From positions 183,995 through 247,994 of the forward strand of contig CBDHCW010000010.1 of assembly GCA_965261445.1 (NCBI GenBank): a stretch of DNA of 64,000 nt, in the 5' to 3' direction. Below, piece by piece: positions 3,938 to 22,300 of the stretch. The stretch comes from Dehalococcoidia bacterium. GTDB taxonomy: Bacteria; Chloroflexota; Dehalococcoidia; Lucifugimonadales; QGNO01. Both the position numbers and the translations under genes were made by a program. The notes below the pieces were generated by a model. It saw only the letters and a program-made list of their open reading frames with translations, did not search any database and was not told where the DNA came from. Each line of letters begins with the position of its first letter. The first letter of the stretch is position 1.

Positions 3938-3982
3938 TAGGCGCATGTGTCACAGTTGCGACTAACTGTTACTATCGGGCTT

Positions 3983-4225: not shown

Positions 4226-4294
4226 GAGGCGGAGTGCACCTTCCCCAGTTCTGATGCCTATTGCAGTCATACTTGCCCAATTGCGATAATCGAA

Positions 4295-4309
4295 GTAGAC
4301 AGTGTCTAC
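4295..4309. promoter_or_regulatory. perfect palindrome GTAGACA-G-TGTCTAC upstream of the XRE gene / Type I R-M operon
   Basis: A 15-bp perfect palindrome lies 47 nt upstream of ATG 4356. It shares the TAGACA half-site with 2671-2691. Confidence 0.45.
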
Positions 4310-4355
4310 TGGCGGTAATCACCAGACGGGCATATGCACTACGAAGGAGAAGCTA

Positions 4356-4709
4356 ATGGCCAAGACAGCGAGGTTCGACGGCGGTGCCTTCTTCGCCGCT
4401 CTAGACGCAGAGAGGCAAGCCCGCCATTGCACCTGGAAGCAAGTGGCGGCGGAGTGCGGCATCAGCGCCTCCACCTTGACCCGAATGTCTCAAGGCAGGC
4501 ACCCTGACGTGAATGGTCTCGCGGCGCTGGCTGCGTGGTCAGGGCTGGACATGGACCAGTTCGTCAGGAGCGCCGCCACCAAGGAAGAGCCAGAGCCCTT
4601 GGCCGTGATCTCGTCCTGTCTCCACTCGGACCCGCGCCTCAATGAGGAAGCGGCCATTGCCCTTGACCAGATGGTGAAAGCAGCATACAGGAGCATGACG
4701 AGCCAATGA
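4356..4709 (+). CDS. XRE-family HTH protein (possible controller of the R-M operon)
   Basis: The SD GAAGGAG precedes the ATG at 4356. The HTH reads TWKQVAAECGISASTLTRMSQGRHPDVNGL. Its stop overlaps the hsdM start (ATGA). Confidence 0.75.
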   Translation: MAKTARFDGGAFFAALDAERQARHCTWKQVAAECGISASTLTRMSQGRHPDVNGLAALAAWSGLDMDQFVRSAATKEEPEPLAVISSCLHSDPRLNEEAAIALDQMVKAAYRSMTSQ

Positions 4710-6658: not shown

Positions 6659-6664
6659 CTCACG

Positions 6665-8113
6665 ATGGTTAGACAACCGAATACACCACTAGACGCGCAG
6701 AAGTCGATCACACTCAAGCTCAGCGAGCCAGTGATTAACTCGGAAAATCCATGGGCCGACGACCTCCTTGCCAGACAGCAGATTGCCACACGGCTCACGA
6801 ACCTTGTTGCCACCCAAGAGCCGCCGCTGACCATCAGCCTCCATGGGCAATGGGGAACAGGCAAGACCTTCATGCTCAAGCGCTGGCAGAAAGACTTGGA
6901 AGGTACGGGCTTCAAGGCTATCTACTTCAACGCGTGGGAAGACGATTTTTGTGACGACCCTCTCCTTGCGATACTCGGTCAGATGACAGAGACTTTCAAG
7001 GAAGGCAGCCTCAAAACACTAACTCAAAAGATAGTTACAACTGCAGTGACGCTATTCAAGAGGAATGCACTGAGCGTTTTGTCCAATAAGATCGGGATAA
7101 CGCTTGATACTGAGCAAAATGAGAGAGATCTCTTAAAGGAGTACTTCAACGAAAGAGCGACAAAGGATGAATTGAAAGAACACCTAGCGAAATTGTCAGC
7201 AGCAGTAAGCCATGAAACCAAACATCCCCTAGTCTTCATTATCGACGAGCTAGACAGATGCCGCCCAAGTTTTGCGATTGAGCTTCTGGAAAGGGTCAAG
7301 CACATATTCGATGTTCCGCACATGGTGTTCGTCTTTGGTCTCAACCGAGATGAACTTTCCAAGTCATTGTCTTCAGTCTATGGTGATATCAACACGGACG
7401 TTTACCTTCGACGCTTCTTCGACTTTGAGCTCAATCTCCCGGAGGCGGACTCTCGTGGCTTTGCCACACAGTTGATCGATAGGTTTCAAATTGCTGACGT
7501 CTTCCAACAACTTGCTGAGGCTGCCCGTGACCGAGCGCCCCTTCACGACTACGATAACTACAGAACAGTCTTCCCGAAGCTATGGGCCGCCTTGGGGCTT
7601 TCTCTTCGGGACATTGATTACGGCATCCGATTGCTTGCTCTTCTAGCAAAGAATGTCCCCGTCGGGGCCTTCACCCATCCGTTCTTACTCGCTGTTCTCA
7701 TAGCAATGAAGTTCAAGAAGCCTGAATTCTATCGTTCGTTGATATCAGGAAACTTTCGGACGAGCGAGATTATGGACTATATCGATGACGAAGCATCAAG
7801 GCGAACTTCGACCGATGAAGCTCTCTCTCGTCACTTGGATAGGATTGAGGGCTTCCTCTACTGCGCTGATATAACAAACCGTGACGACCAAAGGCGCGGC
7901 GAGAATGCCCGTACGGAGCTCTTGAGATTGTCGCAGGGCGATGTGGAATTTGGGTTTCAAATTGTCTCTCGCCGGGCGCAGAGTGCGGATCCAGAACATT
8001 ATTCACGGATTATTCAGGCGATTGAAGTTGGCGATGGACTAGGGATTACCGGCGATACATTCGGTGATTTGGCGACACTCATTGATGCATACCAGATGCA
8101 ATTGAGACGTTAG
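6665..8113 (+). CDS. KAP-family P-loop NTPase
   Basis: Walker A is LHGQWGTGKTFML and the KAP-type Walker B is LVFIIDELDRCRP. The gene starts 7 nt after hsdM and ends 10 nt before hsdS. It is visibly more A/T-rich than its neighbours. Confidence 0.85.
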   Translation: MVRQPNTPLDAQKSITLKLSEPVINSENPWADDLLARQQIATRLTNLVATQEPPLTISLHGQWGTGKTFMLKRWQKDLEGTGFKAIYFNAWEDDFCDDPLLAILGQMTETFKEGSLKTLTQKIVTTAVTLFKRNALSVLSNKIGITLDTEQNERDLLKEYFNERATKDELKEHLAKLSAAVSHETKHPLVFIIDELDRCRPSFAIELLERVKHIFDVPHMVFVFGLNRDELSKSLSSVYGDINTDVYLRRFFDFELNLPEADSRGFATQLIDRFQIADVFQQLAEAARDRAPLHDYDNYRTVFPKLWAALGLSLRDIDYGIRLLALLAKNVPVGAFTHPFLLAVLIAMKFKKPEFYRSLISGNFRTSEIMDYIDDEASRRTSTDEALSRHLDRIEGFLYCADITNRDDQRRGENARTELLRLSQGDVEFGFQIVSRRAQSADPEHYSRIIQAIEVGDGLGITGDTFGDLATLIDAYQMQLRR

Positions 8114-8122
8114 GAGTCAACC

Positions 8123-9433
8123 TTGAGCACCACGCCCCAATCCTATCCCGCCTACAAGCCCTCCGGCGTCCCCTGGCTCGGCGACGTGCCGGCCCACTGG
8201 GAAGTACGACGACTTAGGTCGGTTGCCGATGTGATCAACGGTGCCACGCCTTCCACCAACGTCCCTAACTATTGGGACGGCCACATCCTGTGGGTCACCC
8301 CAGATGACCTGGGTAGACTAAGGAGTCGTTACGTCACTGACAGCGCACGTCAAATAACGGAAGAAGGCTATAGATCGTGTGGCACTAGCATGGCACCAGC
8401 CAACAGCCTAGCAGTCTCGACGCGCGCGCCTATTGGCCACTTGGGAATCTTGCAGTCAGAGGGCTGTGTAAATCAGGGTTGTCGGCTACTGATACCGGGT
8501 GCTTCCATTCAGGTTGAGTACCTGCACTATACTCTCAGCACCGGCCGCTCTGACCTCGCGTCTCTGGGACGGGGCAGTACCTTTACAGAGTTGTCGCGTA
8601 CGCAGTTGAGTGCATTCCGATTCCCTCTCCCACCGCTCCCCGAACAGCGCGCCATCGTGCGGTACCTGGACTACGTGGACCGACGCATCCGGCGGTACGT
8701 CGCCGCCAAGCGGAAGCTCATGGCACTGCTGGAGGAGGAGAAGCAGGCCATCGTCAACCAGGCCGTAACCCGCGGTCTGGACCCCAACGTCCGCCTCAAG
8801 CCCTCCGGAGTCGAATGGCTCGGCGACGTGCCGGAGCATTGGGAAGTGCGACGGTTACGGTCACTCGCAAGTATTGGAACAGGTGGACGGGATACGATCA
8901 ACCGGGAGGATGACGGTCAGTATCCTTTCTTCGTGCGATCTCAATCCGTCGAGAGGATAAACACGTGGTCTTTTGATGGTGAGGCGGTGTTGACGGCTGG
9001 AGATGGAGTGGGTGTGGGCAAGGTGTTCCATTACGTCAACGGGATGTTCGACTACCACCAGCGTGTTTACAAGTTCAGCAACTTTAGACACATTGCAGGG
9101 AAGTACTTCTTCCACTACTTCAGGTCTACGCTACGCAATGAGGTCTTTCAAGGAACAGCGAAATCCACCGTAGACTCTTTGCGGCTTCCCATGTTGCAGA
9201 ACTTTCCAGTCGCTTTTCCACCCCTTCTGGAACAACATGCCATCGTCGAGAACCTTGAAGATACAACCGCCAGCGTAGACCCCGCCATCACCCGCGCCCG
9301 ACGCCAGATTGAGTTGATCGAGGAATACCGCACCCGGCTCATCGCGGACGTGGTGACGGGCAAGCTGGACGTGCGAGAGCAGGCGGCGCCTCCAGAGAGT
9401 CCCGCTGAGTGCAACGAGGGGAACTTACAGTGA
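8123..9433 (+). CDS. hsdS: Type I restriction-modification system, specificity subunit
   Basis: The start is TTG. There are two variable TRDs, each preceded by KPSGV(P/E)WLGDVP(A/E)HWEVRRLRS and followed by conserved helices (LPPLPEQRAIVRYLD and FPPLLEQHAIVENLE). Confidence 0.9.
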   Translation: MSTTPQSYPAYKPSGVPWLGDVPAHWEVRRLRSVADVINGATPSTNVPNYWDGHILWVTPDDLGRLRSRYVTDSARQITEEGYRSCGTSMAPANSLAVSTRAPIGHLGILQSEGCVNQGCRLLIPGASIQVEYLHYTLSTGRSDLASLGRGSTFTELSRTQLSAFRFPLPPLPEQRAIVRYLDYVDRRIRRYVAAKRKLMALLEEEKQAIVNQAVTRGLDPNVRLKPSGVEWLGDVPEHWEVRRLRSLASIGTGGRDTINREDDGQYPFFVRSQSVERINTWSFDGEAVLTAGDGVGVGKVFHYVNGMFDYHQRVYKFSNFRHIAGKYFFHYFRSTLRNEVFQGTAKSTVDSLRLPMLQNFPVAFPPLLEQHAIVENLEDTTASVDPAITRARRQIELIEEYRTRLIADVVTGKLDVREQAAPPESPAECNEGNLQ

Positions 9434-10110
9434 TAGACATAGATTCTGTTGATGAGCGCAGACGAAACGGAACGTTGCGGCCTGAAGTGGCTCACATCTT
9501 AGAGTTGGTTGAGCTCCCCCGACACATTCCTGACATATGTAGGATCGCAGAACGCCTTGCTTTAGGTGACAAGTCTGTCATCGACGATCTAACCGTTATT
9601 GACAGAACAATTCCCGGACTGGGCTTCGTAGACATCAACGAGCGAACTCCTAGTGGTTCCTATACTGGTGTGTATCAAATTTCAGACAGACCGATCTTCA
9701 GAGGAATCCAATACGTGGGGATGCATTTGGGCATGAACAACATTGAGTGGCTTTGTCGAACCATAGTTGAGGATTCTTGTTACCACCTTGAAAACAGTCT
9801 AAAGCGCCGATTGAGTATTCGTGAGGACCAGCATTGGTCCGTAGGTGTAATCTTGAACACTCCGCAGGGCAAGCGGCTAAATGGATCGTTGCGAAAGCCA
9901 TTAATCGTATTGAACCGAGCGGTGTATAACAGGGCGAAGCATACCATTGAGATGATTGATCTCAACTCGCATATGTTCTCAGCCGCGGACGCGATCGCCA
10001 TCTATTTGTGCTGTCGTGCGATGGGTGCGAAACTAATCGGTAAGTTGGGCCTCAAAACGAACTATGGAATCCCAATATTCCCAGAGATGGAACCTGATGC
10101 GGAGACGTAG
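9430..10110 (+). CDS. hypothetical protein with possible HEPN/DUF4145-like R-x3-N-x3-H motif
   Basis: The GTG start overlaps the hsdS stop (GTGA); an alternative GTG is at 9409. The motif is LNRAVYNRAKHTIE. The gene is A/T-rich relative to hsdS and hsdR. Confidence 0.5.
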   Translation: MIDIDSVDERRRNGTLRPEVAHILELVELPRHIPDICRIAERLALGDKSVIDDLTVIDRTIPGLGFVDINERTPSGSYTGVYQISDRPIFRGIQYVGMHLGMNNIEWLCRTIVEDSCYHLENSLKRRLSIREDQHWSVGVILNTPQGKRLNGSLRKPLIVLNRAVYNRAKHTIEMIDLNSHMFSAADAIAIYLCCRAMGAKLIGKLGLKTNYGIPIFPEMEPDAET

Positions 10111-10140
10111 GACGTCAGCAACCGAAAGAGAGGTGACCGT

Positions 10141-10389
10141 ATGACGGACTGGAGCAAGTGCCCGGCGGTTGAGAGCGTGCCCGGCAAGGTAAGCGGGGCC
10201 TGGGTGTTCAAGGACACGCGGTTGCCGGTGTCTGCCCTTTTCGGCAACCTTGCGGAGGGCGCAACTGTCCACGACTTCATCGAGTGGTTCGGCGGCGTGG
10301 ACGAAGCGCAGGTGCGGGCGGTCTTGGAGTTCGTAGTGCAAGACCTTGACGCCAAGGTCGCTAAGGTCTCGCATGCGACTTCTGTTTGA
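10141..10389 (+). CDS. DUF433-family protein (antitoxin-like)
   Basis: PGKVSGAWVFKDTRLPVSALFGNLAEGATVHDFIEWF matches the DUF433 pattern (GxP...GTRxPV...L..G.s...i). It is paired with the downstream PIN-like gene. Confidence 0.8.
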   Translation: MTDWSKCPAVESVPGKVSGAWVFKDTRLPVSALFGNLAEGATVHDFIEWFGGVDEAQVRAVLEFVVQDLDAKVAKVSHATSV

Positions 10390-10708
10390 CCACAATGCGC
10401 CCCGGCAGCTTCGCCCTCACCTCGTCGGTCACGATGTTGACGTGGCGGAAGAGCGCGGGTGGGCGACGCTTGTCAATGGTGAATTGCTGGACCGGGCGGA
10501 AGAAGCAGGGTATGAAGTCGTGATTACTGCGGACAGGAACATGCCATATCAGCAGAACATCGGGAGCCGAAGCCTCGCGCTGATCGTTCTCGGGGCGAAC
10601 CGGTGGCCGCTCATCGAGCCAAGGATCGAGGATATTCGCGCCGCCCTGGATGAGATCCAGCCCGGAGAAGTGCGGGAAGTCCACATCCCGATGAGAGGCG
10701 AGACATAG
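10373..10708 (+). CDS. DUF5615-family (PIN/Mut7-C-like) protein (toxin-like)
   Basis: MRLLFDHNAPRQL...VVITADRNMPYQQN is typical of the DUF5615 partners of DUF433. The ATG at 10373 overlaps the DUF433 gene by 17 nt. Confidence 0.75.
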   Translation: MRLLFDHNAPRQLRPHLVGHDVDVAEERGWATLVNGELLDRAEEAGYEVVITADRNMPYQQNIGSRSLALIVLGANRWPLIEPRIEDIRAALDEIQPGEVREVHIPMRGET

Positions 10709-10709
10709 C

Positions 10710-13700
10710 GTGACCACCGACACCAGCGAGAAAGGGCTTGAGCGCCTCATCTGCGAAGCGCTAACAGGCGCTGCCTGCGATCCGCCGCAGGCTGGTGCGG
10801 TCTATGAGCGGCCGGCAGAGTACGGCGTGGGCTGGATATGCGGAGACCCTCAGGACTACCACCGGGAGTACTGCGTAGACCTGACGCAGCTATCCGCCTT
10901 CTTGCGAGCCACCCAGCCCGTAGCCGCTGAATCGCTTGGCCTAGACGAGGACGGCCCGACCCGGCGCAGATTCCTGGCTCGGCTGCAAGGTGAGATAACC
11001 AAGCGCGGCACTATAGAAGTGCTTCGCAAGGGGATCAAGCACGGGCCACACCAGATCGACCTGATGTACGGCACTCCGTCGCCGGGCAACGAGAAGGCTA
11101 GGGTTCTATACGGGCAGAACCGCTTCAGTGTGACCCGTCAGCTCCGCTACAGCAACGACAACGCGCAGCTTGCCCTGGACCTGTGCCTGTTCATCAACGG
11201 CCTGCCCGTCGCCACCTTCGAGTTGAAGAACAGCCTGACTAAGCAAACGGTGGATGACGCCGTAGAGCAGTATAAGCGGGACCGCAACCCCAGGGAGAAA
11301 CTCTTCGAGCTTGGCCGCTGCCTCGCCCATTTCGCCGTGGACGACCACGAGGTGCAGTTCTGCACGCATCTCAAGGGCAAGGCGTCATGGTTCCTGCCCT
11401 TCAACAAGGGATGGGACGACGGCGCGGGCAACCCGCCTAACCCCAATGGCCTCAAGACCGACTACCTGTGGAAGCAGGTGCTCACCCGCGACGGTCTCAC
11501 CAACATCATCGAGAACTATGCCCAGATCGTGGATACGAGGGACGACAAGACCGGACGCAAGAGGCGAGAGCAGATATGGCCCCGCCACCACCAACTGGAC
11601 GTGGTGCGCAGGCTGCTGGCCGATGCTTCCGGTAAGGGAGTCGGCTCCAGGTACCTGATTCAGCACTCGGCGGGAAGCGGCAAGTCCAACTCCATCGCCT
11701 GGCTGGCCCATCAGCTGATAGGACTGAAGCGGGACGATGCGACTATCTTCGACACCGTGATCGTGGTCACGGACCGCAGGGTGCTGGACAGGCAGATACG
11801 GGACACCATCAGGCAGGTCGCCCAGGTCGGCTCTGTCGTGGGTTACGCCGAGACCTCCGGCCACCTGCGTCGGCTGCTCCAGGAGGGCAAGCGTATAGTC
11901 ATCACCACGGTGCAGAAGTTCCCCTTCATCCTGGACGCCATCGGCAACGAGCACCGGGTCCGCAGGTTCGCCGTCGTCATAGACGAGGCCCATTCGAGCC
12001 AGGGCGGGCGGACGTCGGCGTCGGTGTCCATGGCTCTGGGAGAAGCGGGCGCTGAGGAAGAGGACGAGACCACCGAGGACAAGGTCAACCGGCTTATGGA
12101 GTCCAGGAAGCTACTGTCCAATGCCAGCTACTTCGCCTTCACCGCCACGCCTAAGAACAAGACCTTGGAGATATTCGGCACACCCGTTCCTGAAGGCGAG
12201 AATACGAAACACGTGCCCTTCCACTCCTACACCATGAAGCAGGCCATCCAGGAGCGGTTCATTGTCGACGTTCTGAAAGACTACACACCGGCGAACAGCT
12301 ACTACCGGTTGGTGAAGACGGTTGAGGGAGACCCGGAGTTCGACATGAAACGGGCAGGGAAGAAGCTGCGCCGCTACGTGGAGGACCACGACCACGCCAT
12401 CCGGCTGAAGGCGGAGATCATGGTCGACCACTTCCACGAGCAGGTGGCCGGCCTGCAGAAGATAGGCGGGCAGGCGCGGGCCATGGTAGTGACGAGCAGC
12501 ATCCGACGGGCCATCAGCTACTACTACGCCATTCGGGACTACCTGACGGAGCGCAAGAGCCCATATCAGGCCATCGCTGCCTTCTCCGGCGAGCACGAGT
12601 ACGATGGGACTAAAGTCACGGAGGCGTCCCTCAATGGCTTCTCGTCCAACCTGATCACCGACAGGATCCAGGAGAATCCGTACCGCTTCCTGGTCTGCGC
12701 CGACAAGTTCCAGACCGGCTACGACGAGCCGTTGCTGCACACGATGTACGTGGACAAGCCGTTGTCGGGAGTGAAGGCGGTGCAGACGCTCTCCCGTCTC
12801 AACCGGGCACACCCCAAGAAGCATGACGCCTTCGTGCTGGACTTCGCCAACGACACCGACACAATCCAGACCGCTTTCTACCCATACTACCGAACCACCA
12901 TTCTCTCGGAGGAGACCGACCCTGACAGGCTGCACGACCTAACAGCGGCTCTGGACGGCTATCAAATCTATGACCCGACCCAGATTTACGAACTCGTAGA
13001 GCGTTATCTTTCGGGATACGACCGCGACCGGCTCGACCCAATATTGGACGCCTGTGTCTCGGTCTACCGTGACCAATTGGACGAGGACGGCCAGGTCGAC
13101 TTCAAGGGCAAGGCGAAGGCATTCCTCCGGGCCTACGGGTTCCTAGCCACTATCTTGCCCTACACTGTTGCTGAGTGGGAGAAGCTCTCCATTTTCTTGA
13201 CCTTCCTCGTTCCCAAACTTCCCGCTCCCGTCGAGGACGACCTGTCGAAGGGGATTCTCGAAGCTATCGATATGGACAGCTACCGGGTGGAGAAGCAGGC
13301 TGTGCAGGACATCCAGCTTCCCGACGAAGATGCGGCGATAGGGCCGGTTCCCACCGATGGCGGAGGACAGAAAGCGGAACCAGAGATGGACCGACTCTCC
13401 AATATCATCAGGGACTTCAACGACCGGTTTGGCAACATCGAGTGGAAGGACCAAGACAAGATCGAGAAGGTGATTGCCGAGGAACTGCCCGCGAAGGTGG
13501 CTGGAGACAGGGCCTACCAGAACGCAATGGCGAACTCCGACCCGCAGAACGCCCGGATCGAGCACGACAAGGCCTTGGAACGGGCCATGGCAGACTATGT
13601 GGCCGACCCCATCGAGCTATTCAAGCAGTTCAGCGACAACGAGTCTTTCCGCCGGTGGCTTTCCGAGAGGGTCTTCGCCGCCACGTACTTGACACCTGCC

Positions 13701-13721
13701 ACACCTACGGTTGGCCAATAG
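10710..13721 (+). CDS. hsdR: Type I restriction-modification system, restriction (helicase-nuclease) subunit
   Basis: The GTG start is 1 nt after the upstream stop. The N-terminal nuclease core is DLCLFINGLPVATFELKN. The SF2 motifs are HSAGSGKSN, VIDEAHSSQ, FTATP and QTLSRLNR. Confidence 0.95.
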   Translation: MTTDTSEKGLERLICEALTGAACDPPQAGAVYERPAEYGVGWICGDPQDYHREYCVDLTQLSAFLRATQPVAAESLGLDEDGPTRRRFLARLQGEITKRGTIEVLRKGIKHGPHQIDLMYGTPSPGNEKARVLYGQNRFSVTRQLRYSNDNAQLALDLCLFINGLPVATFELKNSLTKQTVDDAVEQYKRDRNPREKLFELGRCLAHFAVDDHEVQFCTHLKGKASWFLPFNKGWDDGAGNPPNPNGLKTDYLWKQVLTRDGLTNIIENYAQIVDTRDDKTGRKRREQIWPRHHQLDVVRRLLADASGKGVGSRYLIQHSAGSGKSNSIAWLAHQLIGLKRDDATIFDTVIVVTDRRVLDRQIRDTIRQVAQVGSVVGYAETSGHLRRLLQEGKRIVITTVQKFPFILDAIGNEHRVRRFAVVIDEAHSSQGGRTSASVSMALGEAGAEEEDETTEDKVNRLMESRKLLSNASYFAFTATPKNKTLEIFGTPVPEGENTKHVPFHSYTMKQAIQERFIVDVLKDYTPANSYYRLVKTVEGDPEFDMKRAGKKLRRYVEDHDHAIRLKAEIMVDHFHEQVAGLQKIGGQARAMVVTSSIRRAISYYYAIRDYLTERKSPYQAIAAFSGEHEYDGTKVTEASLNGFSSNLITDRIQENPYRFLVCADKFQTGYDEPLLHTMYVDKPLSGVKAVQTLSRLNRAHPKKHDAFVLDFANDTDTIQTAFYPYYRTTILSEETDPDRLHDLTAALDGYQIYDPTQIYELVERYLSGYDRDRLDPILDACVSVYRDQLDEDGQVDFKGKAKAFLRAYGFLATILPYTVAEWEKLSIFLTFLVPKLPAPVEDDLSKGILEAIDMDSYRVEKQAVQDIQLPDEDAAIGPVPTDGGGQKAEPEMDRLSNIIRDFNDRFGNIEWKDQDKIEKVIAEELPAKVAGDRAYQNAMANSDPQNARIEHDKALERAMADYVADPIELFKQFSDNESFRRWLSERVFAATYLTPATPTVGQ

Positions 13722-13785: not shown

Positions 13786-13944
13786 TTACACCGCCAGAGC
13801 GAACCTCAACACCAGGGTTCTTGATTTTGTCAAGTTAGGTGGACAGCGGCGCAGACCCTGCAATTGAGGGTTGGCGGTGAGACTGCATGCGACAATACCG
13901 GCGGAAACGACTACCAGGGCGGCTGTCTGCCGGCGGTGTCTCAT
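13786..13944 (-). CDS. possible 52-aa signal/lipoprotein-like peptide
   Basis: Its ATG overlaps the TGA of the Cys-rich ORF (ATGA). MRHRRQTAALVVVSAGIVAC resembles a lipobox signal. The equivalent frame after the second Cys-rich copy is not conserved beyond ~13 aa. Confidence 0.2.
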   Translation of the reverse strand: MRHRRQTAALVVVSAGIVACSLTANPQLQGLRRCPPNLTKSRTLVLRFALAV

Positions 13945-14167
13945 ACGCTGCATCCACAGGCGCAGGGCGGTAGGGCCCTGACTCGCAGGCGGCGTTCGCG
14001 CAGCTGGTCGCAGCTGAGACAGGCACAAGAATCCTGTTTGTGCTGGGCGGACTCTGCCAGCTCATCGAGTGCCAGGAAGTAGCCTTGAGCGGCGCGTTCG
14101 CACGGCTCGCACTCGTCAACACCACAGGGGAAATCATGCTTGTTGGCCATAGGTCACTCTCCTGGCT
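13912..14167. repeat. copy A of a ~255-bp direct repeat (carries Cys-rich ORF A plus its RBS)
   Basis: It aligns base-for-base with 19111-19366 at an offset of 5199 bp. I counted 16 substitutions inside the 210-nt coding part. Confidence 0.85.
13941..14150 (-). CDS. Cys-rich small protein (C-x4-C-x2-C ... C-x-C-x2-C ... C-x-C-x-C), paralog A
   Basis: The protein is 69 aa with 9 Cys, and the SD AGGAGAG lies upstream. Compared with paralog B, 10 codons differ synonymously and 5 non-synonymously, and every Cys is conserved. Confidence 0.6.
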   Translation of the reverse strand: MANKHDFPCGVDECEPCERAAQGYFLALDELAESAQHKQDSCACLSCDQLRERRLRVRALPPCACGCSV

Positions 14168-14314: not shown

Positions 14315-15214
14315 CTATCTGGCGCTCCTCATCAGTCCGCCGTCCCTGAGCTGCCCCGTTAAGACAATCCAAAGGCAGAGAACTCCCAACGGGACCCATC
14401 CGAGGATGCCAACATAGCTCACAAAGAGCCAGTTTGGCCCACCCCAAAAGAGCAACAGCGTCAGGCTCGCGCCTGTGGTGTTCGTGGCTGAATGTCCCAG
14501 ACTTGCGGCCCAGATGCTTCCCGTCCTCACGCGGAGCCATCCAAAGATGATGGACAGCATGATCGCGCTGACTGCGAAGACCAGCATGCCAAGCATGGGC
14601 TGGTCAGGGAAGTTGTAGCCTCGTAGGTAAATTGGAAGGTGCCACAGTGCCCATATGATGCCTGTCACAACGGCGGCCCACAGCGGTCGATCACCCATTA
14701 AACGGACTTGGAGGTAACCACGCCAGCCGAATTCTTCACCCCACAGGATGGGGGTGACCACCAACGCTGCGATCATCATCTGTAACGGCAGAATGGCGAA
14801 GAGACCTGGAGGAAGAGAGGGGATCGTAACCCCCTCTGGTGCCAGTTCCGTCAGAGCACGGTCCAGGGTAAGATCTGGCTCGCTTACCCCCAGAGCTGCG
14901 GCTAGAAGTACAATCACCAATACTGCCGCGAGGGGCAAGCACCACCCGGCAAGGTAGTAGCGCCATCGCTCTATGTTCAACCCCAGTCCTGCATCCGCAA
15001 ACCCCTCCTGAGTCACCCACTTTCTCACGACAACAGCAGCAAGGGCTGGCGAAAGGGCTCCAGGTAGAATGGCGAGTTGAAACAGAGGACTATCGGGCGA
15101 CGGGCCCACCAGCAGGGCAATCTCCCAGAGCACCCAGGCCAGTCCGAAGGCGATCAGAAGGTATACGGCCACGCCCCTCTTGTTGGTATCCAACACCAAA
15201 GCCCCTACTGACAT
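14315..15214 (-). CDS. CPBP-family (CAAX/Abi) intramembrane glutamic protease
   Basis: It is a multi-TM protein with the motifs EEFGWRGYL, ALWHLP and HSATN. Its ATG overlaps the ATPase stop (TGATG); the ORF-track TTG start is at 15217. Confidence 0.85.
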   Translation of the reverse strand: MSVGALVLDTNKRGVAVYLLIAFGLAWVLWEIALLVGPSPDSPLFQLAILPGALSPALAAVVVRKWVTQEGFADAGLGLNIERWRYYLAGWCLPLAAVLVIVLLAAALGVSEPDLTLDRALTELAPEGVTIPSLPPGLFAILPLQMMIAALVVTPILWGEEFGWRGYLQVRLMGDRPLWAAVVTGIIWALWHLPIYLRGYNFPDQPMLGMLVFAVSAIMLSIIFGWLRVRTGSIWAASLGHSATNTTGASLTLLLFWGGPNWLFVSYVGILGWVPLGVLCLWIVLTGQLRDGGLMRSAR

Positions 15215-16911
15215 CAATCGTGCTGTTGTGCCAAGTAGCAGTCTTCTAACGGGGCCGCTGGTTGGACACCAAGGGCAATGGATAGCGGCCCAACACGTTG
15301 CCTCAGCTTTTCGGCGAGTTCCGCATCGGACTGGATCCGGGCAATGAGCGTCTGCTCATATAGGTTTCTTTTCTTAAAATCCAGTGCATGCGCGACTTCA
15401 GCAAGGACGCCACTCTCTCTGAGTGGATAACGGGCCAGCAGTTGGTCTAGGTCCCCGGCTTCCACTAGCTCTCTGAATGTCGCCAACTCTTCCTGGAAGG
15501 GAGATGTGACGGAGATTTTGATGTCTGTCTGGCCATCGTCCTTGATTGTCTCCCAGTTGGGAGCCTGCGAGACGATCCAATTCCTCACCACCTGCTCGCA
15601 GCGCCTGGCAGCCATCCTTTCGGCCAGTCCATCCTCTGCCAGGGCAGCGAAGGCCGCGTCTAGTGCTGGCTGCATCATGGAGCCTAACTCTCGTCCTAGC
15701 GACTCTTCCTGACGGCGGGCCACGGCATCCAGTGATTCGGAACAGTAGTAGAGCGACTCAACAGAGAAAGCATCGAGCACGAATACGCCACGATTGCGGA
15801 GGGTGTCCACTGCTTCTTGGTCTCGACCATCACCGTCAATCAATCCAAATGCCTCTACGTGGTGGAGGTGATATGAGCCTTGAATACCTTCAACGGCTCT
15901 CTGGACATCGGTGCTTCCGCCACTAGCCACGACGGAGACATCCGGAAACAGGGAGTTGTAGATCGGTGAGTCCAAGCTCGTCGCAGTCCCTTCAAGAAAG
16001 AGGACTTTGCGCCGCGAGCCCAAAATCGCCTGGCGTAACTCCTCTGGCATCTGGTCATTGGATTCGAGTAGGTCGATGTCCCAGGTGCTGGCCCTGTTGT
16101 TCTGCCATTCGCATGACCGAACCATTACGACTCCTGCAGCAGGGTTTGAGGCGGGTAGGGCCAGCTCATGCGTGGAAATGACGAACGTGCAGTCCGCGCG
16201 CCTGGCAAACACGGCCGCTAGGAAAGGGACGATTATGGATCGATGGAGGTGTCTCTCCGGTTCGTCAATCAGCAGTACGGTGCCGGGTTCGACGGTGAGC
16301 ACGGTCGCCCCAATTATTGCGGCGTTCCGTTCTCCATCTGACATCTGGGCGATACTGTAGGAAGCGTTCGCGTTTCGATGCTTCGCAATGATCTCCTCAT
16401 CGTTTGAGTTCTCCAGGGCAATTAAGAGTGTTCCCAAGGCCAGCAGGTCATTGAGTTCTGTGAATGCTGATACGGACTCTGCGGCGCGGTGTGCAGCCCC
16501 TTCCAAGTCCTTGCTGTCCACGAAACCCGTGATCGAACGTGCACGCGTGTTGTCCTTGGCTACTAGGTCGAAGAGTACCGCCGATTGCTTCCTCTCAGCG
16601 TTGTATTCTTGCCATAGAGACTCGTAGTTCCTCTCAGTGTCTGTATCCTCTTCCCCGAACTCTTTACGGCCTAGCGGAGTGAGGTCGAGGCTGCCAGAGC
16701 CTAGCCATGTTTGTCTGTGGGCTGAAATGCGCCGAATGTTCCGACCCTGGTGCGACGAAATGAGGTGTTGAATCAGGGCTGACTTTCCAGAACCATTAGG
16801 ACCCACTACAAAGAGGCATTCACCCCGGTTGAGGGATACGTGCAAGGGTTCCTGAGCAGTGCGAGGGATACCCCACTCCAAGCTTGGACCCAGATTGGCG
16901 GTTGTATCCAT
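15214..16911 (-). CDS. fused ABC-type ATPase / DUF4435 Toprim protein (OLD-family, PARIS AriA-AriB-like)
   Basis: The start is ATG 16911, with the SD GGGGGAGGA. The ATPase motifs are Walker A GPNGSGKS, signature-like MSDGERN, Walker B LLIDEPERHLH and ISTHE. The C-terminal half carries KVLFLEGTATSLD, VVASGGSTDV and FGLIDGDGRD (Toprim E...DxD). The ORF-track start at 17088 adds a non-protein-like N-terminus. Confidence 0.85.
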   Translation of the reverse strand: MDTTANLGPSLEWGIPRTAQEPLHVSLNRGECLFVVGPNGSGKSALIQHLISSHQGRNIRRISAHRQTWLGSGSLDLTPLGRKEFGEEDTDTERNYESLWQEYNAERKQSAVLFDLVAKDNTRARSITGFVDSKDLEGAAHRAAESVSAFTELNDLLALGTLLIALENSNDEEIIAKHRNANASYSIAQMSDGERNAAIIGATVLTVEPGTVLLIDEPERHLHRSIIVPFLAAVFARRADCTFVISTHELALPASNPAAGVVMVRSCEWQNNRASTWDIDLLESNDQMPEELRQAILGSRRKVLFLEGTATSLDSPIYNSLFPDVSVVASGGSTDVQRAVEGIQGSYHLHHVEAFGLIDGDGRDQEAVDTLRNRGVFVLDAFSVESLYYCSESLDAVARRQEESLGRELGSMMQPALDAAFAALAEDGLAERMAARRCEQVVRNWIVSQAPNWETIKDDGQTDIKISVTSPFQEELATFRELVEAGDLDQLLARYPLRESGVLAEVAHALDFKKRNLYEQTLIARIQSDAELAEKLRQRVGPLSIALGVQPAAPLEDCYLAQQHD

Positions 16912-17465
16912 AAGTCCTCCCCCTGCGTTGGAATGAGCCACTCTGCACCCGCCTTCGGCGAGGCCATTTCCGGGTGCCCTTGCATCATGTGTCCGAGCTG
17001 CTCGTCGGTGAGCCTGACCTCGTTTCCATGCGCGTCGGTGAAACGGCGCACGTCGGCCCCCATCACCAGATACCGTACCGTAAAGCATACCACGCTAGGG
17101 CATAGCAGCAGCTCGGCGGCGCTCTACAGCTTCCGATTCTGGGCTATCCTGGGAGTTGGGATTCAGGGGCATCTGGGGGAGAGTGTGTGTCAGCCGCCTG
17201 TCTGATTCTGGGCTCTCCAGGTGTATCAGCGCCGGCTCCAAGATTTGTCGGACACTGTCGCACAGTGGTCGGACAGATCTCCGAGCTAGAAGGCGATTTC
17301 AGGGTTTCAGGCACGAATGGGGTGAACTTGGCTCAGAAAAGACGCGCCAGGATTCCGATTCTACGGCGTTTTCGGGGGCCCCAGGCGCTCAGCACCAGCA
17401 GGGCAGCTCCACCGATGACGCGCCACAGTGAGGTGGCATAGATGAATAGGGCACTTCCTAGTGCC

Positions 17466-17756
17466 TCAGGGTGTCTCGGATGGCTCGTCCAAGAGGTTCT
17501 TGCTACGAAGAATCTCTATGTACGAGTTCCGATTTAACCTACAACTGATCGCTTCTTGCAATTGGTTGGCGTTCAACTTCAACTGTTGTCGGATGCTGTG
17601 AAACATCGGAAGGTCACCATTAGATTTGTAGGAGCGCCGTGTCCGGACGACCACCTTATCGTTAATAACGAGCCATGCAAGGAGGTCTTTGCTATTCCTA
17701 GTCTCGAAACCGAACTTGCTGACCAGACTGTCAAACTCATGCGCGGTTAGCGGCAT
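17466..17756 (-). CDS. YcfA/HicA-like small protein (toxin-like; catalytic His not evident)
   Basis: The ORF starts at the internal ATG (MPLTAHEFDSLVSKFGFETR...VVVRTRRSYKSNGDLP..IRQQLKL), which follows the HicA-like pattern. It overlaps the upstream gene by 20 nt. Confidence 0.4.
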   Translation of the reverse strand: MPLTAHEFDSLVSKFGFETRNSKDLLAWLVINDKVVVRTRRSYKSNGDLPMFHSIRQQLKLNANQLQEAISCRLNRNSYIEILRSKNLLDEPSETP

Positions 17757-18165
17757 AAGTTTTGCGGACCTTTCGAGAGAGTGTGCTCCAAACCTTTGCC
17801 AAGTCTGGCCCAAGCCGCTTCTGTTCAGATTCCAAGGTTCGATAGAGTTCTACAATAGCCGCTTGTAGATCCTTGATAGCCCCTGAGGGGTCGCTACCGA
17901 ATCCGAACTCGTTTAGTTCTGTTGCCTCGACTACGTATTGATTACCCTCTGTCATCTGTTTGACCTCAATGGCCTCAATGACTCGAAGACGCCTATCACG
18001 CAGATTACCCAGGGTAAATCTCTCCGGAACTACAGGTGCTTCTTTCACTGCGGCACCGACTTCTACTAGCGAGCCAACGAGTTCCTCCAATGGGAGAGGG
18101 TTCTTCAAAATAACGTCGCTCGACCTCTGCTCACCTAGTTGCTCTATTTTTGTCTCGGCTACCAT
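17737..18165 (-). CDS. hypothetical protein (antitoxin-like partner)
   Basis: The ATG at 18165 is preceded by the SD AAGGAGG. The C-terminal part (NQYVVEATELNEFGFGSDPSGAIKDLQAAIVELY) resembles HicB-type N-domains. Confidence 0.35.
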   Translation of the reverse strand: MVAETKIEQLGEQRSSDVILKNPLPLEELVGSLVEVGAAVKEAPVVPERFTLGNLRDRRLRVIEAIEVKQMTEGNQYVVEATELNEFGFGSDPSGAIKDLQAAIVELYRTLESEQKRLGPDLAKVWSTLSRKVRKTYAANRA

Positions 18166-18167
18166 CT

Positions 18168-18641
18168 TTAGCCTCCTTGCTGTTGAACTACCCTTATGGA
18201 TGTCGAGCCCAGAAACATAGAGTTTGCCCATATCTGGAACTCGTACATACCCTGAACAGGTATTGGTAAAGGCGGAAATGGAAGGTGTATTTCGAATGAA
18301 CCGTGGTTCCTTGCTGTCAATTCGCCTTCAGCATTTGCAAGAACTTGACCTGTAGCGACTTGGACATAACGAACGTCGAATCTGTAGTAACCTTCTGCAT
18401 CCACCATCTTAAGGTATAAAGAGATTGGCTGCTCTGCGGGGAACTTCCGTGCGTGCATCGTATCGAAGATACCAATGAGGCTATTCTTGCCCGTACTTCG
18501 ATCTGAGACGGCAGCATCACATACTAGAGCCGCCACCAAGAGCGGCACTACCTCACTGAGTGGTTGATCCTTAGCTTGCGACAAGACTACCCTCTTTTCA
18601 CCCAACCGACGACATCTTACTAACATTGTCGCAAATTTCAA
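18168..18641 (-). CDS. hypothetical protein
   Basis: The ORF is 157 codons and the start is uncertain. I recognised no motif. It is the first large gene of the three-gene module ending with the HicA-like ORF. Confidence 0.45.
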   Translation of the reverse strand: MKFATMLVRCRRLGEKRVVLSQAKDQPLSEVVPLLVAALVCDAAVSDRSTGKNSLIGIFDTMHARKFPAEQPISLYLKMVDAEGYYRFDVRYVQVATGQVLANAEGELTARNHGSFEIHLPFPPLPIPVQGMYEFQIWANSMFLGSTSIRVVQQQGG

Positions 18642-18722
18642 GCAGGTATTCGATCTACGACGGCCTTTATGCGGTCACCAGGCATAAGACGCTCTTGTTC
18701 TGACACTCCTGCTAGTCAACCC

Positions 18723-18890
18723 TCAAGACGGTGGACGGTTCAAGTGTGCTTGTGTGATTACTCCCCCATCGTCGTCTTCAAGCCTGCTTAGAATCTCCTG
18801 GATTCCGTTCTCCAGGTTAACCAAATGCCGGTCCACACTATCCAGCCGCTCATTTATTTGCTGGAATCGCTCATCCATTTCACGACTCAT
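18723..18890 (-). CDS. possible 55-aa coiled-coil protein
   Basis: It is below the ORF-track cutoff. The SD AGGAGG lies 5 nt before the ATG. The heptad-like sequence is MSREMDERFQQINERLDSVDRHLVNLENGIQEILSRLEDDD. Confidence 0.3.
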   Translation of the reverse strand: MSREMDERFQQINERLDSVDRHLVNLENGIQEILSRLEDDDGGVITQAHLNRPPS

Positions 18891-19110
18891 ATTTACCTCC
18901 TATGCCGCCGTATCTTCTTCTCTGTCCTGACCTCCGCCTGAATCGCTGATTCATGGAAGACCGCAGCCTTGATCCGTCGTCCTCACTGTTCATCACCAGT
19001 AAATTGTAGCAGAAGGGACGATTCTCTGATCCTGCTGGGGACCCTGTGAATTCGCCGCCTGCATCTTCACCATTGCGGCCACCATGCTCGCCGTCTTGGC
19101 GGCTGGCCAC

Positions 19111-19366
19111 AACCAGGGCGGCGGTGCTGAGGCGGCGTCTCATACGCTGCATCCACAGGCGCAAGGCGGTAGGGCCCTGACTCTCAGGCGGCGTTCGCGC
19201 AGCTCATCGCAGCTCCGGCAGCCACAAGAATCCTGCTTGTGCTGTGCAGACTTGGCCAGCTCATCGAGTGCCAGGAAGTATCCTTGAGCGGCGCGTTCGC
19301 ACGGCTCGCACTCGTCAACACCACAGGGAAATTCATGCTTGTTGGCCATAGGTCACTCTCCTGGCT
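19111..19366. repeat. copy B of the ~255-bp direct repeat (carries Cys-rich ORF B plus its RBS)
   Basis: See 13912-14167. Confidence 0.85.
19140..19349 (-). CDS. Cys-rich small protein, paralog B
   Basis: It is 69 aa and 64/69 identical to paralog A, with all 9 Cys conserved. Confidence 0.6.
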   Translation of the reverse strand: MANKHEFPCGVDECEPCERAAQGYFLALDELAKSAQHKQDSCGCRSCDELRERRLRVRALPPCACGCSV

Positions 19367-19571
19367 AGTATTGCTTGAGTATCGAACGAACGGCGGCGCG
19401 GACTGCTGCGCATGGACTGCATCCACAAGGCTGGGCGTGTCCATTGCCAACAACGGCTCGGACCTCACTGTAGGCTTTCTCCTTGCCTGTAGCGTAGCCG
19501 TCCCCGTAGTCGAAACAGCGCTGGCAACTCGCATCCTGGCAGCTGGCAAAGTCGTGGCTCTCATTCGTCAT
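19365..19571 (-). CDS. Cys-rich small protein, paralog C (lacks the C-terminal CxCxC tail)
   Basis: It is 68 aa. It shares HDF..C-x4-C-x2-C and C-x-C-x2-C with paralogs A and B. It sits 15 nt upstream of paralog B. Confidence 0.55.
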   Translation of the reverse strand: MTNESHDFASCQDASCQRCFDYGDGYATGKEKAYSEVRAVVGNGHAQPCGCSPCAAVRAAVRSILKQY

Positions 19572-19577
19572 GATTCG

Positions 19578-19748
19578 TCACCCACTGCATTGATCTCTGC
19601 ACACGAACACGCGGGCGGGCTGTCCCTCCTGGCGCAAGCGCCGGACGGCGATATAAGCGCCGGTCCGATAGGTGAAGACCTGCGGCATGCGTTTCAGGGT
19701 GTCCCCGTCTCGATACTCCCAGACGTGCCAGTGCATGCTGGGGATCAT
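19578..19748 (-). CDS. small HxH...CxnC protein (family member P2)
   Basis: It is 56 aa, below the ORF-track cutoff: MIPSMHWHVWEYRDGDTLKRMPQVFTYRTGAYIAVRRLRQEGQPARVFVCRDQCSG. It ends 6 nt before paralog C. Confidence 0.4.
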   Translation of the reverse strand: MIPSMHWHVWEYRDGDTLKRMPQVFTYRTGAYIAVRRLRQEGQPARVFVCRDQCSG

Positions 19749-19764
19749 AACGCTCCGGCCGAAC

Positions 19765-19796: not shown

Positions 19797-19839
19797 ACTG
19801 TTTTCTCTCATCACCCCTTGGCTCCAGCTCACTCCCAGG

Positions 19840-20275: not shown

Positions 20276-20974
20276 CTAGAGTGCATAGAATAGAATGCTC
20301 TCGAGGTCTCTGTCGTCGTTGTCGTCCCCAGCGATTTCGGCACGTGTCCAGGTTTCCCCGTAGCGCGCCCACACCTTTCGGTCGGGGTCGGGGGGAGGCA
20401 GTGGGAGAAGACCATCGTAATCGTTCCACACCCTCTCAATGCTCTTGTAACCGAGATCCACCACCTTAGCGACCGCATCACAAGCAGAATATTCTGGTTC
20501 AGTCGCACTGTTACGAGTTGGATTTATGCCTACCTTAGCACGAAGGAAACCCACCATTGCGCCCAACAAAGAGTCCCTCCAGGCAGTGGAGTGGCCCTTT
20601 GCCGGATTGCCTTCTATCTGATCGGCCACCAACCACTGCGCTAGAAAGTCCGGGACTTTCCCTTCCCGTCGCAGATAGCGGGCGATCGCCCACAATACAT
20701 CCCTCACTCTCTTATTGTTCTCAGACTCGGCAATCTTCCGGTCCAGCCATGCGTGGCCAAACCTCAGCTTATCCCAGACATTCTTGTATTCCTCCGGCCA
20801 GTCTTCCCCATTCAACAGCCATGGGGAGGCTGAGCGCTTGTAATCATTCAGGAGAATATCAACATGATTGTCGATCCACCCAACGCCGAATGCAGAATCG
20901 AGTATCCGTTTCAACTCTTTAGCGAGGCGCTCGGCCTCTTCGTATTGTTCCTCCCTATTCAACATTGCCCCCAC
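20276..20974 (-). CDS. hypothetical protein
   Basis: The ORF is 232 codons and overlaps the integrase stop by 20 nt. I recognised no motif. Confidence 0.55.
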   Translation of the reverse strand: MGAMLNREEQYEEAERLAKELKRILDSAFGVGWIDNHVDILLNDYKRSASPWLLNGEDWPEEYKNVWDKLRFGHAWLDRKIAESENNKRVRDVLWAIARYLRREGKVPDFLAQWLVADQIEGNPAKGHSTAWRDSLLGAMVGFLRAKVGINPTRNSATEPEYSACDAVAKVVDLGYKSIERVWNDYDGLLPLPPPDPDRKVWARYGETWTRAEIAGDDNDDRDLESILFYAL

Positions 20975-22142
20975 AAAATGTTGCCCACTCTTGCATGAGG
21001 CCCCGCCGCCGCTCGAAGAGGTCGGTGCGCGCGTAGGCCGACTCCAGGTTGTTGCCCAGGTTGTGTGCTAGCGCCGCCTCGCTGACCGCCCAGGGGTAGG
21101 ACGTCTCGGATAGCGTCCAGTCCTTGAATGAAGACCGGAAACCATGAGGTACAGCGGGAATCTCCAACCGCTTTAGCATTCTGGTAAATGCCATGTCAGA
21201 AAGCGGTCTTCCCGTCCGGGGACTAGGGAAAACAAGGTTGCCCTCTTTGCGGAGGGATTTGGCCTGCTTCAATATGGCAACCGCTCGATCCGACAGGGGG
21301 ACCCGGTGCTCGCGTCGCTTCTTCATACGCTCGGCGGGTACAGTCCAGGTATCCCCCCATACCTCATCCCAGATCATGTCGCGAGCCTCACCCGACCGCG
21401 CAGCTGTCAGCACCAGGAATTCAAAAGCCAGGCGGGTGAACTTGTCGGCGGTGGAATTGCGTACTAGGTTCAAGACAGCTGGTACCTCGCTATAGTCGTC
21501 AACGGCGGGGTGATGACGCTTCAATCGAGGCCGGCGAGGCAATGCCTTTGCAACGGCGGATACAGGATTGTCCTGCCTCATGTTGGAGGCTATCGCGTAG
21601 TCAAACACCACTTCCGCCCTTTGCTTGACCCTGGTAGCCGTCTCCGGTATTTCGTTCCATATGGGCGATAGCATGCCTAGAATGTCGCCACTCGAAATGC
21701 GCTCGATCTGCATAGCTCCGATAGCGGGGAATGCGTGGTTGGTAAGGGATTCCGTCCATTGTGTAGCATGGCGCTCACTCGACCACGTAGGCCTGCGCAA
21801 CTCGATGACCCGCTCGGCTACCTCTCGGAAGGTAGGCTTGCTGGCGTAGGCTTGCTGGGCAGCTCTCTTAGCAGTTGCTCTTTCCTTTGATCCCGTCGGT
21901 TTATACCCTTCCTCGATCTCCGCCCTGCATTCAGCGGCCTTTGCCCTTGCCTCCTTCACCCCCACCGACGGATAGCTCCCCAGCCCAACATTGGCAGGCT
22001 TGCCGTTGAACATGTACCGGAGCACCCAGCTACGGCGTCCGCCCTTGCCTACCCTGAGGGTTAGGCCGTTGCCGTCATTGTGGGTTCCAGGCCCGGCATG
22101 GCGAATCGCTCGATCTGTCAGCAATTTATCCTGGACCGGCAT
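20955..22142 (-). CDS. int: tyrosine recombinase / integrase with N-terminal arm-binding (DUF4102-like) domain
   Basis: The N-terminus reads LTDRAIRHAGPG..GLTLRVGKGGRRSWVLRY. The catalytic residues are in LTAARSGEAR, HGFRSSFKDW and LAHNLGNNLESAYAR. The likely start is MPVQDKL at 22142; the ORF-track start is 22217. Confidence 0.9.
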   Translation of the reverse strand: MPVQDKLLTDRAIRHAGPGTHNDGNGLTLRVGKGGRRSWVLRYMFNGKPANVGLGSYPSVGVKEARAKAAECRAEIEEGYKPTGSKERATAKRAAQQAYASKPTFREVAERVIELRRPTWSSERHATQWTESLTNHAFPAIGAMQIERISSGDILGMLSPIWNEIPETATRVKQRAEVVFDYAIASNMRQDNPVSAVAKALPRRPRLKRHHPAVDDYSEVPAVLNLVRNSTADKFTRLAFEFLVLTAARSGEARDMIWDEVWGDTWTVPAERMKKRREHRVPLSDRAVAILKQAKSLRKEGNLVFPSPRTGRPLSDMAFTRMLKRLEIPAVPHGFRSSFKDWTLSETSYPWAVSEAALAHNLGNNLESAYARTDLFERRRGLMQEWATFCGGNVE

Positions 22143-22154
22143 CTGCGAACCCCC

Positions 22155-22186
22155 ATTTTGTACATTTATTTTGTACATTTTGTACA
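22155..22186. promoter_or_regulatory. three direct ATTTTGTACA repeats upstream of int
   Basis: The copies are at 22155-22164, 22168-22177 and 22177-22186. Each contains the palindromic hexamer TGTACA. They lie 13-44 nt upstream of the int ATG. Confidence 0.35.
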
Positions 22187-22300
22187 AGATTATGGGAGTA
22201 TCGAGCGGAATTGTCAAGACGTCAGAAGCCTCTATTCTGTGTCTACGTTAGCCTTGCACGTGTCCAATTCTGAGGAATGCAAGGCCATATAATTGCGGGA

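Follow-up and report, generated by a model that had tools for sequence, protein, structure and literature searches.

A stretch of 64,000 nucleotides (nt) recorded as Dehalococcoidia bacterium DNA (contig CBDHCW010000010.1, positions 183,995 to 247,994; hereafter the window) carries an integrative element with a direct repeat, and each copy of the repeat encodes a 69-amino acid (aa) Cys-rich protein (copies A and B). A third small Cys-rich protein, paralog C, is encoded beside copy B. We think it reasonably probable that these proteins represent an undescribed family of predicted two-zinc helical hairpins and, jointly, that the repeat was produced by recombination of two related elements at the site where they carry cargo. 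The interpretation that the repeat is a scar left by recombination at a hotspot for cargo is fairly well supported, its anatomy having been read by comparison with related loci and its origin being what we infer from that anatomy. The related loci that contain other genes of the family are referred to as L001 to L016.

The direct repeat contains two intact genes under selection

A scan of positions 1-23000 identified one 258-nt direct repeat with a spacing of 5199 nt (Table 1) which, apart from an internal duplication in HsdS, was the sole large repeat. The two copies differ at 24 positions (90.7% identity; longest identical run 47 nt), and these mismatches are unevenly placed, with 3 in the first 112 nt followed by 11 in the next 50 nt. 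This 50-nt divergent patch (repeat positions 112-161) therefore holds 11 of the 24 mismatches, and copy A there matches the allele of L002; outside the patch and the gene stub at the downstream end, the copies are ~97% identical. The ribosome-binding site of the 69-aa gene (AGGAGA) lies within the repeat, as the initial annotation had stated.

Copies A and B are both intact and encode proteins that are 93% identical, with 9 of 9 Cys and 2 of 2 His retained in each, which bears out the earlier description of two 69-aa open reading frames (ORFs) with conserved Cys. Nei-Gojobori analysis gave 11 synonymous and 5 non-synonymous differences (Sd and Nd, respectively; dS = 0.28, dN = 0.032, dN/dS = 0.11), so the earlier count of 10 and 5 was essentially right. 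Across the five known sequences of this type (the A/B subtype) all 11 Cys/His columns are invariant, set against 42 invariant columns among all 69 (hypergeometric P = 0.002), and this, together with the dN/dS of 0.11, supports the proposal that the ORFs are selected coding sequence. The residues concerned are, in copy A, H5, C9, C14 and C17, H37, C42, C44 and C47, and a tail of C63-x-C65-x-C67.

A disrupted membrane-protein gene marks the cargo site

In L001, L002, L003 and L014, a membrane-protein gene or its 5′ stub comes after the 69-aa gene. The gene is intact in L001 and L002 (~270 aa), and in L001 it encodes a 271-aa protein with an N-terminal transmembrane (TM) anchor and is ATGA-coupled to the A/B gene. 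In the window the same gene is broken into two 5′ stubs, one per A/B copy, and one 3′ remnant. The stub after copy A was matched by tblastn with a 159-aa protein of L001 (61.5% identity over 26 aa, E = 0.001), the rest of this ORF being read-through. The initial annotation had described it as a signal-peptide-like ORF coupled to copy A by ATGA; the overlap is present, but the ORF is the 5′ stub of the disrupted membrane-protein gene. The homologous part extends to ~21-26 codons after copy A and ~12 codons after copy B, and L003 has the same junction after copy B as the window. The 3′ remnant, which also gave blastn matches to L001 and L002, is 10.6 kb away from the stub. L014 was considered as a third breakpoint and rejected, as it is a diverged, probably frameshifted ortholog on a contig of 3x coverage.

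Positions 18719-19955 of the window, on the copy B side, are 99.5% identical to L003, an independent assembly, across paralog C, copy B, the 12-codon stub and a 55-aa ORF, and the two sequences are unrelated after 18719. Past the shared part, the cargo of L003 is different (an Eco57I-like gene); a 3′ remnant of the membrane-protein gene comes after it there as well, and L003 has no second A/B copy. The swapped cargo of L003 with its shared stub and remnant, and the intact gene of L001, indicate by comparison that the membrane-protein gene is the cargo site of the element, with conserved flanks and variable defence content. Close relatives thus share flanks and differ in cargo (the window and L003, with the gene intact in L001), and the cargo includes recognised defence systems (AriAB, a PDC-S20 KAP NTPase and HsdM/S/R in the window, and the Eco57I-like gene in L003). 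In the window, two cargo blocks stand one after the other, each with its own left flank (an A/B gene and a stub), and there is a single right flank; block 2 lies between the stub of copy A and the 3′ remnant. The arrangement is not that of an integron-like or site-specific cassette array: in positions 1-23000 there were no inverted repeats, no direct repeats beyond the coding repeat and the HsdS duplication, and no site-specific recombination sites bounding the 5.2-kb block.

The Cys-rich proteins form an undescribed family

Paralog C, first proposed in the initial annotation, is a true relative of copies A and B. In profile-profile comparison (hhalign), the A/B group matched the C family with 90% probability (E = 1.5e-6) and with the ligand columns aligned, and a hidden Markov model built from C-type sequences alone also retrieved the A/B genes. 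When paralog C was compared exhaustively by phmmer with 1.84 billion representative proteins, 220 clusters (at 50% identity) were retrieved with E<=1e-3, and a profile search of a 90%-identity database returned 211 matches to the C family, with none named and none carrying a Pfam domain. The named genomes in which close relatives of the C gene occurred were all metagenome-assembled genomes of Dehalococcoidia or SAR202.

There was no above-threshold match in Pfam, NCBIfam, PHROGs or PADLOC for the three window proteins or for 103 family members, and the sub-threshold matches were scattered (Whib, CSL zinc ribbon, Yae1_N and FliH), each to 1-2 of the family members scanned. Comparison of the family profile with PDB sequences gave a chance match only (E = 0.72), and a domain-fusion ('Rosetta stone') check of 10 longer family members revealed no Pfam domains. 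No relatives were found in phage and plasmid collections using tblastn, or in IMG/VR viral contigs. A JGI metagenome scan located the C type on 6 short contigs only and the A/B subtype on none, and literature searches returned no description of either type. As Foldseek searches of the PDB were likewise empty (see below), the earlier statement that the proteins belong to no known family stands, and the C and A/B proteins constitute an undescribed family of mobile-element proteins of roughly 60-90 aa.

Since the A/B subtype is rare and always lies directly after a C-type gene, we take it to have arisen by tandem duplication of the C type within one lineage; its helix 1 is shorter, and it has an additional C-x-C-x-C tail. 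Tandem paralog arrays are present in L001, L012 and the window; in L012 (5321-6524) a D5-type primase is followed by three to four tandem paralogs (77, 71, 92 and 82 aa), and arrays thus recur. The backbone genes of integrative elements are thereby extended by an unannotated and fairly widespread small-protein family (~220 clusters at 50% identity). The family occurs in little-studied lineages, among them Dehalococcoidia and SAR202, and no curated model covers it.

A predicted helical hairpin with two putative zinc sites

The AlphaFold model of paralog C, calculated from a 103-sequence alignment, has a mean pLDDT of 89 and consists of an N-terminal loop, a helix (residues 17-43), an 8-residue loop and a second helix (52-67). 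Copy A is predicted to have the same helical-hairpin topology (helices 15-36 and 45-59) at lower confidence (pLDDT 73). Foldseek searches with the paralog C model gave 0 PDB matches, and none in BFVD below E = 3.

The family pattern is H-x4-C-x4-C-x2-C ... H-x3-C-x-C-x2-C, with one knuckle before each helix, and residues H45, C49, C51, C54, G25, G29, K30 and E36 (paralog C numbering) are invariant or at least 90% conserved. In a motif census covering 257 family members, the second motif (H-x(2-5)-C-x-C-x2-C) was present in 239. An N-terminal motif was present in ~189, either as H-x-C-x4-C-x2-C or as C-x-C-x3-C-x-C, each of which gives four ligands. The ~68 members that fit neither N-terminal pattern include many with variant or longer N-termini, and ~14 members (for example P0063, P0087 and P0125) are clearly without N-terminal ligands while retaining the second motif, which in some family members is repeated. 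Retention of the second motif in the absence of the first makes the two sites look modular, and we infer that they are independent four-ligand knuckles. The proteins thus have eight conserved His/Cys positions in two motifs, each a set of four as in structural zinc sites, and with moderate support these positions are most simply interpreted as two tetrahedral structural zinc sites. Several C-type members (P0017, P0026, P0157, P0140 and P0078) carry a C-terminal tail of the form H-[IL]-x-D-C-x-G-x-G-C-G-x-x-C-x-C-W-C-H, and this aligns with the C-x-C-x-C tail of the A/B proteins. The C-terminal Cys tail may be a third, optional metal site.

Three groups of small metal-binding proteins were compared with the family. 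The WhiB-like (Wbl) proteins of actinobacteria and their phages and plasmids are similarly small (~70-120 aa), mostly helical, Cys-rich and often borne on mobile elements, and a reading of the family as Wbl-type redox-sensing transcription factors with an iron-sulphur cluster could draw on these features and on a weak match of 1 of the 103 family members to Pfam Whib (E = 0.0043). That match is below threshold, however, and one such is expected by chance over 103 scans; A, B and C themselves had no match to PF02467 at E<=1, let alone at the gathering threshold. The Cys spacing also differs, as neither the four-Cys Wbl pattern (C-Xn-C-X2-C-X5-C) nor the G[V/I]WGG turn is present, and two conserved His, eight ligand positions and a separable second motif suit two zinc sites better than a single 4Fe-4S cluster. 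We regard a Wbl-type function as improbable. The zinc-binding anti-sigma (ZAS) domain (zf-HC2; H-x3-C-x2-C) is likewise a small, helical, protein-binding module in which His and then Cys stand at a helix start, but the family motif H-x3-C-x-C-x2-C has an extra Cys and the predicted fold has only two helices; there was no Pfam match to this domain and no sigma-factor gene among the window neighbours. Ogr/Delta proteins of P2/P4 are zinc-finger late-gene activators of ~70 aa that act by binding host RNA polymerase, and they resemble the family, with its putative zinc sites, in being Cys-rich zinc proteins of this size in integrative phage-like elements. In contrast to Ogr/Delta, the family is a predicted helical hairpin and the element is without a late-gene module; no match to the PF04606 profile and no other Ogr/Delta similarity was detected, the folds not having been directly compared.

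Origin of the repeat

Under the favoured reading, two related elements with different cargo would have recombined to place their blocks in tandem, and a patch of gene conversion, later or simultaneous, would have given copy A its 50-nt L002-like stretch. RecA-type recombination between the repeats could subsequently delete block 1 and leave one hybrid copy. The initial annotation had suggested that the repeats might mediate excision or inversion of the block. As the repeats are direct, deletion is possible and inversion is not, and a relative lacking exactly the 5.2-kb block was not found among the relatives examined.

The resulting arrangement is similar to the tandem accretion of genomic islands and integrative and conjugative elements (ICEs), in which modules stand in series with a repeated flank between them and can be lost by homologous recombination. 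It differs in that the repeat of the window is an intact coding gene plus a gene stub and not an att site, and in that there is only one integrase and no att repeat was found within the window.

Several points weigh against the joint reading of the repeat and the proteins. There is no homology at the right-end breakpoint of block 1, so at least one illegitimate join has to be assumed, which would lie at 14167/14168. A donor element in which copy A accompanies a type I restriction-modification (R-M) system was not found. The junction on the A side (CPBP gene, copy A, stub and HsdR) has no independent assembly in support, and look-ups of the exact A, B and CPBP proteins were without matches. The A/B subtype is known from four clusters, almost all from one metagenome (ERZ25071132), and the assignment of zinc comes from the sequence pattern.

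The second of the explanations considered is an in-situ segmental duplication, in which one element would have copied its own A/B gene and stub during cargo insertion and then have accumulated point mutations. The ~97% identity outside the patch and stub, and the occurrence of both copies in the same orientation in one element, would be accounted for in this way. However, the stub of copy A is longer than that of copy B and so A is not derived from B, the exact junction of B is present in L003, which has no second copy, and the divergent patch of A matches the L002 allele instead of being random. An in-situ duplication is possible on this evidence, if rather unlikely.

As the source is apparently metagenome-derived, with several related strains coexisting in sample ERZ25071132, the unsupported A-side junction could alternatively reflect a chimeric join of the elements of two strains at the shared 258-nt segment. 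With 24 differences between them the copies are not collapsed, and a chimeric join inside the repeat would yield one copy, not two with four distinct flanks. The B side is moreover confirmed at 99.5% identity by L003, and both proteins are recorded on one 258,525-bp contig. An assembly artefact is therefore unlikely as the cause of the duplication, and we give it very little probability, the A-side junction being the place where one is still conceivable. Recombination of two related elements, as described above, is the explanation retained here.

Possible roles of the Cys-rich proteins

The family core is mildly acidic (median net charge -2), which makes binding of a protein partner likelier than binding of DNA, and helix 1 carries a conserved GxxxG-K...E face. 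The proteins might be small regulatory or adaptor factors of the element that bind a protein partner through this face. A more specific proposal is that C and A/B make up a novel class of helical-hairpin micro-proteins with two zinc sites, which would be core factors in the integrative elements of Chloroflexota and would act directly at the cargo site, for example by controlling expression or recombination or by neutralising host defence during transfer, with the duplicate kept because each cargo block needs one copy; we hold this to be unlikely.

Small, acidic, mobile-element-encoded proteins could alternatively be anti-defence or host-takeover factors, inhibiting a host immune or core protein without regulating the element. 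The tandem paralog arrays of L001, L012 and the window would fit an arms-race family, and the genes often lie at the border between backbone and cargo. On the other hand, there was no PADLOC or PHROG match and none of the proteins was found in phage or plasmid collections or viral contigs; the strong conservation on one helix face is unlike that of fast-evolving anti-defence genes, and dN/dS values of 0.1-0.7 are not indicative of diversifying selection. An anti-defence role has an outside chance of being correct.

The position of copy A, 164 nt downstream of the gene for a CPBP protease on the same strand, had been pointed out in the initial annotation (as 165 bp) and was confirmed here. It had been taken to suggest, as an alternative to metal binding, that the Cys-rich proteins are precursor or immunity peptides tied to this protease. 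The stop codon of an AriAB-like gene overlaps the start codon of the CPBP gene (TTGATG), so the CPBP gene belongs to the AriAB-like operon instead; no CPBP gene is near the other A/B or C genes examined (L001-L016), and the CPBP gene of the window is separated by 4-5 kb from copy B and paralog C. In addition, conservation and the predicted fold extend over the full length of the protein (pLDDT 89 and 73), with no split into leader and core and no variable or disordered core of the kind seen in precursors of ribosomally synthesised and post-translationally modified peptides. A precursor or immunity function linked to CPBP is barely credible. Of the roles considered, that of a regulatory or adaptor factor of the element is the one followed here, although it is weakly supported.

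Defence cargo and comparison with known hotspots

Cargo block 1 contains a fused AriAB protein that combines, as in PARIS, an ABC-type ATPase (AAA_21/AAA_15) with a TOPRIM-like DUF4435 domain, the fused AriAB model of PADLOC spanning residues 237-598. Together with the CPBP gene, it may represent a variant of PARIS that has a membrane protease as its partner. The 115-aa and 164-aa ORFs of the block (17466-18231, minus strand) overlap by 77 nt as listed, and the label 'HicA-like' given earlier to 17466-17813 found no support, there being no Pfam, PHROG or PADLOC match. In cargo block 2, the type I R-M genes are accompanied by a KAP-family P-loop NTPase gene (6665-8113, plus strand) located between hsdM and hsdS, which matches the PADLOC candidate system PDC-S20 (E = 5e-100), and by an unannotated 233-aa ORF (9409-10110) between hsdS and hsdR.

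PARIS was reportedly discovered, in work of Rousset and colleagues from 2022, in defence hotspots of P2 phages and P4-like satellites. By way of working, the window locus appears most to resemble the hotspots of P4-like satellites, with which it shares a P4-type integrase, conserved backbone flanks, content that varies between close relatives, and anti-phage cargo that includes a PARIS homolog. It differs in host lineage (apparently Chloroflexota, compared with Enterobacteria) and in its unrelated flank genes; the hotspot lies inside a membrane-protein gene that is destroyed, the left flank gene is duplicated with two cargo blocks in tandem, and a fusion of AriA with AriB precedes a CPBP gene. 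Outside Proteobacteria, the window is a clear example of a defence-cargo hotspot whose recombination history can be read, here from a destroyed membrane gene that has left two stubs and one 3′ remnant. The gene order of HxW gene (described below), C, A/B and stub might serve as bait for defence cargo in Chloroflexota metagenomes, and the fused AriAB with CPBP is one candidate system from such cargo. No current ideas are overturned by these results, the value of which is in annotation, in the generation of hypotheses and in the mining of defence cargo.

The integrative element and its backbone genes

The window is chromosomal, as indicated by the presence of GroEL, IF-2, ArgJ and YloV, and the element has a P4-type tyrosine integrase (Table 1). 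In intact relatives (L001 and L002) the backbone order is a 52-56-aa gene termed HxW, the C gene, the A/B gene and the ATGA-coupled membrane-protein gene. In L012 the HxW gene is ~45 nt upstream of the first tandem paralog. On the far side of the cargo region, the 3′ remnant is adjoined by a gene for a 196-aa protein with several C-x2-C ... C-x3-C units, which is probably another backbone gene.

A mobile-element context was seen at every locus examined for family members. In L013 the Cys-rich gene and the beginning of a tyrosine integrase gene overlap; in L016 the Cys-rich gene is upstream of a serine resolvase gene, and in L012 it follows a D5-type primase. In L008-L011 it follows an HTH_36 replication-like gene and precedes cargo that varies by contig (in some a toxin-antitoxin pair, in one a TIR-domain protein), and in L015 an AAA_25 gene and an R-M system accompany it.

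Comparison of the integrase-proximal end with the remainder of the window revealed no att repeat, no tRNA was found, and there was no Rfam match in positions 1-30000; the element probably runs past the left window edge. A promoter and terminator scan gave a site count not above that of shuffled sequence.

Table 1 Features of the integrative element in the window
Feature	Position	Strand	Evidence and remarks
196-aa basic multi-zinc-finger protein	2050..2640	-	82% identical to 194-aa protein of L002; weak DUF2116 treble-clef match
3′ remnant of membrane-protein gene (last ~35 codons)	3149..3250	-	tblastn, residues 234-268 of L001 271-aa protein: 69% identity, E=6.5e-9
Cargo block 2, type I R-M	3947..13721	+	HxW-type small ORF, XRE helix-turn-helix, HsdM, KAP NTPase, HsdS, 233-aa ORF, HsdR (Pfam)
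52-aa ATGA-coupled ORF, 5′ stub after copy A	13786..13944	-	Codons 3-28 (13858-13935) match TM anchor of L001 159-aa homolog
Direct repeat, copy 1	13910..14167	.	From ribosome-binding site of 69-aa gene to ~codon 12 of downstream membrane-gene stub
Copy A, 69-aa Cys-rich protein, A/B subtype	13941..14150	-	ORF list and translation; 93% identical to copy B
Cargo block 1, between the repeats	14315..18890	-	55-aa ORF, DUF6941, 164-aa ORF, 115-aa ORF, AriAB, CPBP
CPBP/Rce1-like membrane protease	14315-15217	-	Pfam
Fused PARIS-like AriAB, 624 aa	15214-17088	-	AAA_21 2.7e-14 and DUF4435 1.7e-9 (Pfam); PADLOC AriAB E=1.4e-58
DUF6941 protein, block 1	18168-18641	-	Pfam E=7.7e-16
ATGA-coupled ORF after copy B	18880..19143	-	Only ~first 12 codons (MRRRLSTAALVV) homologous to membrane-protein gene
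Direct repeat, copy 2	19109..19366	.	Upstream edge within stop codon of paralog C
Copy B, 69-aa Cys-rich protein, A/B subtype	19140..19349	-	1 residue different from L003 gene
Paralog C, 68-aa founding-type member	19365..19571	-	H6, C11, C16, C19; G25xxxG29-K30; H45, C49, C51, C54
56-aa 'HxW...VFVCRDxC' backbone gene	19578..19748	-	Directly upstream of Cys-rich genes in L001, L002, L014 and window
P4-type tyrosine integrase	20955..22217	-	Pfam Arm-DNA-bind_3, Phage_int_M, Phage_integrase

The HxW genes encode a small-protein family of their own with the pattern H-x-W ... R-V-F-[VL]-C-x-[DNE]-x-x-C, as delineated by jackhmmer. The window copy at 19578-19748 had no Pfam, PHROG or NCBIfam match, and a second window copy (3947-4225, plus strand) heads the type I R-M block. 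Elsewhere, HxW genes are located in L001 (9615-9773 and 11836-12090), L002 (171-335), L012 (4888-5277) and L014 (5148-5306).

A segment of ~45-57 nt (CCGAGCTGGACGGTGAAAAGCGCCGTCC.TGCCTGATTCGTGCCTGA) is ~90% conserved between the window (1583-1639), L001 (16291-16348) and L003 (11345-11393). It is common to these three otherwise divergent elements, lies at or just beyond the 3′ end of an N6_N4 methyltransferase gene, and may represent the end of a coding sequence, a regulatory site or a site of recombination.

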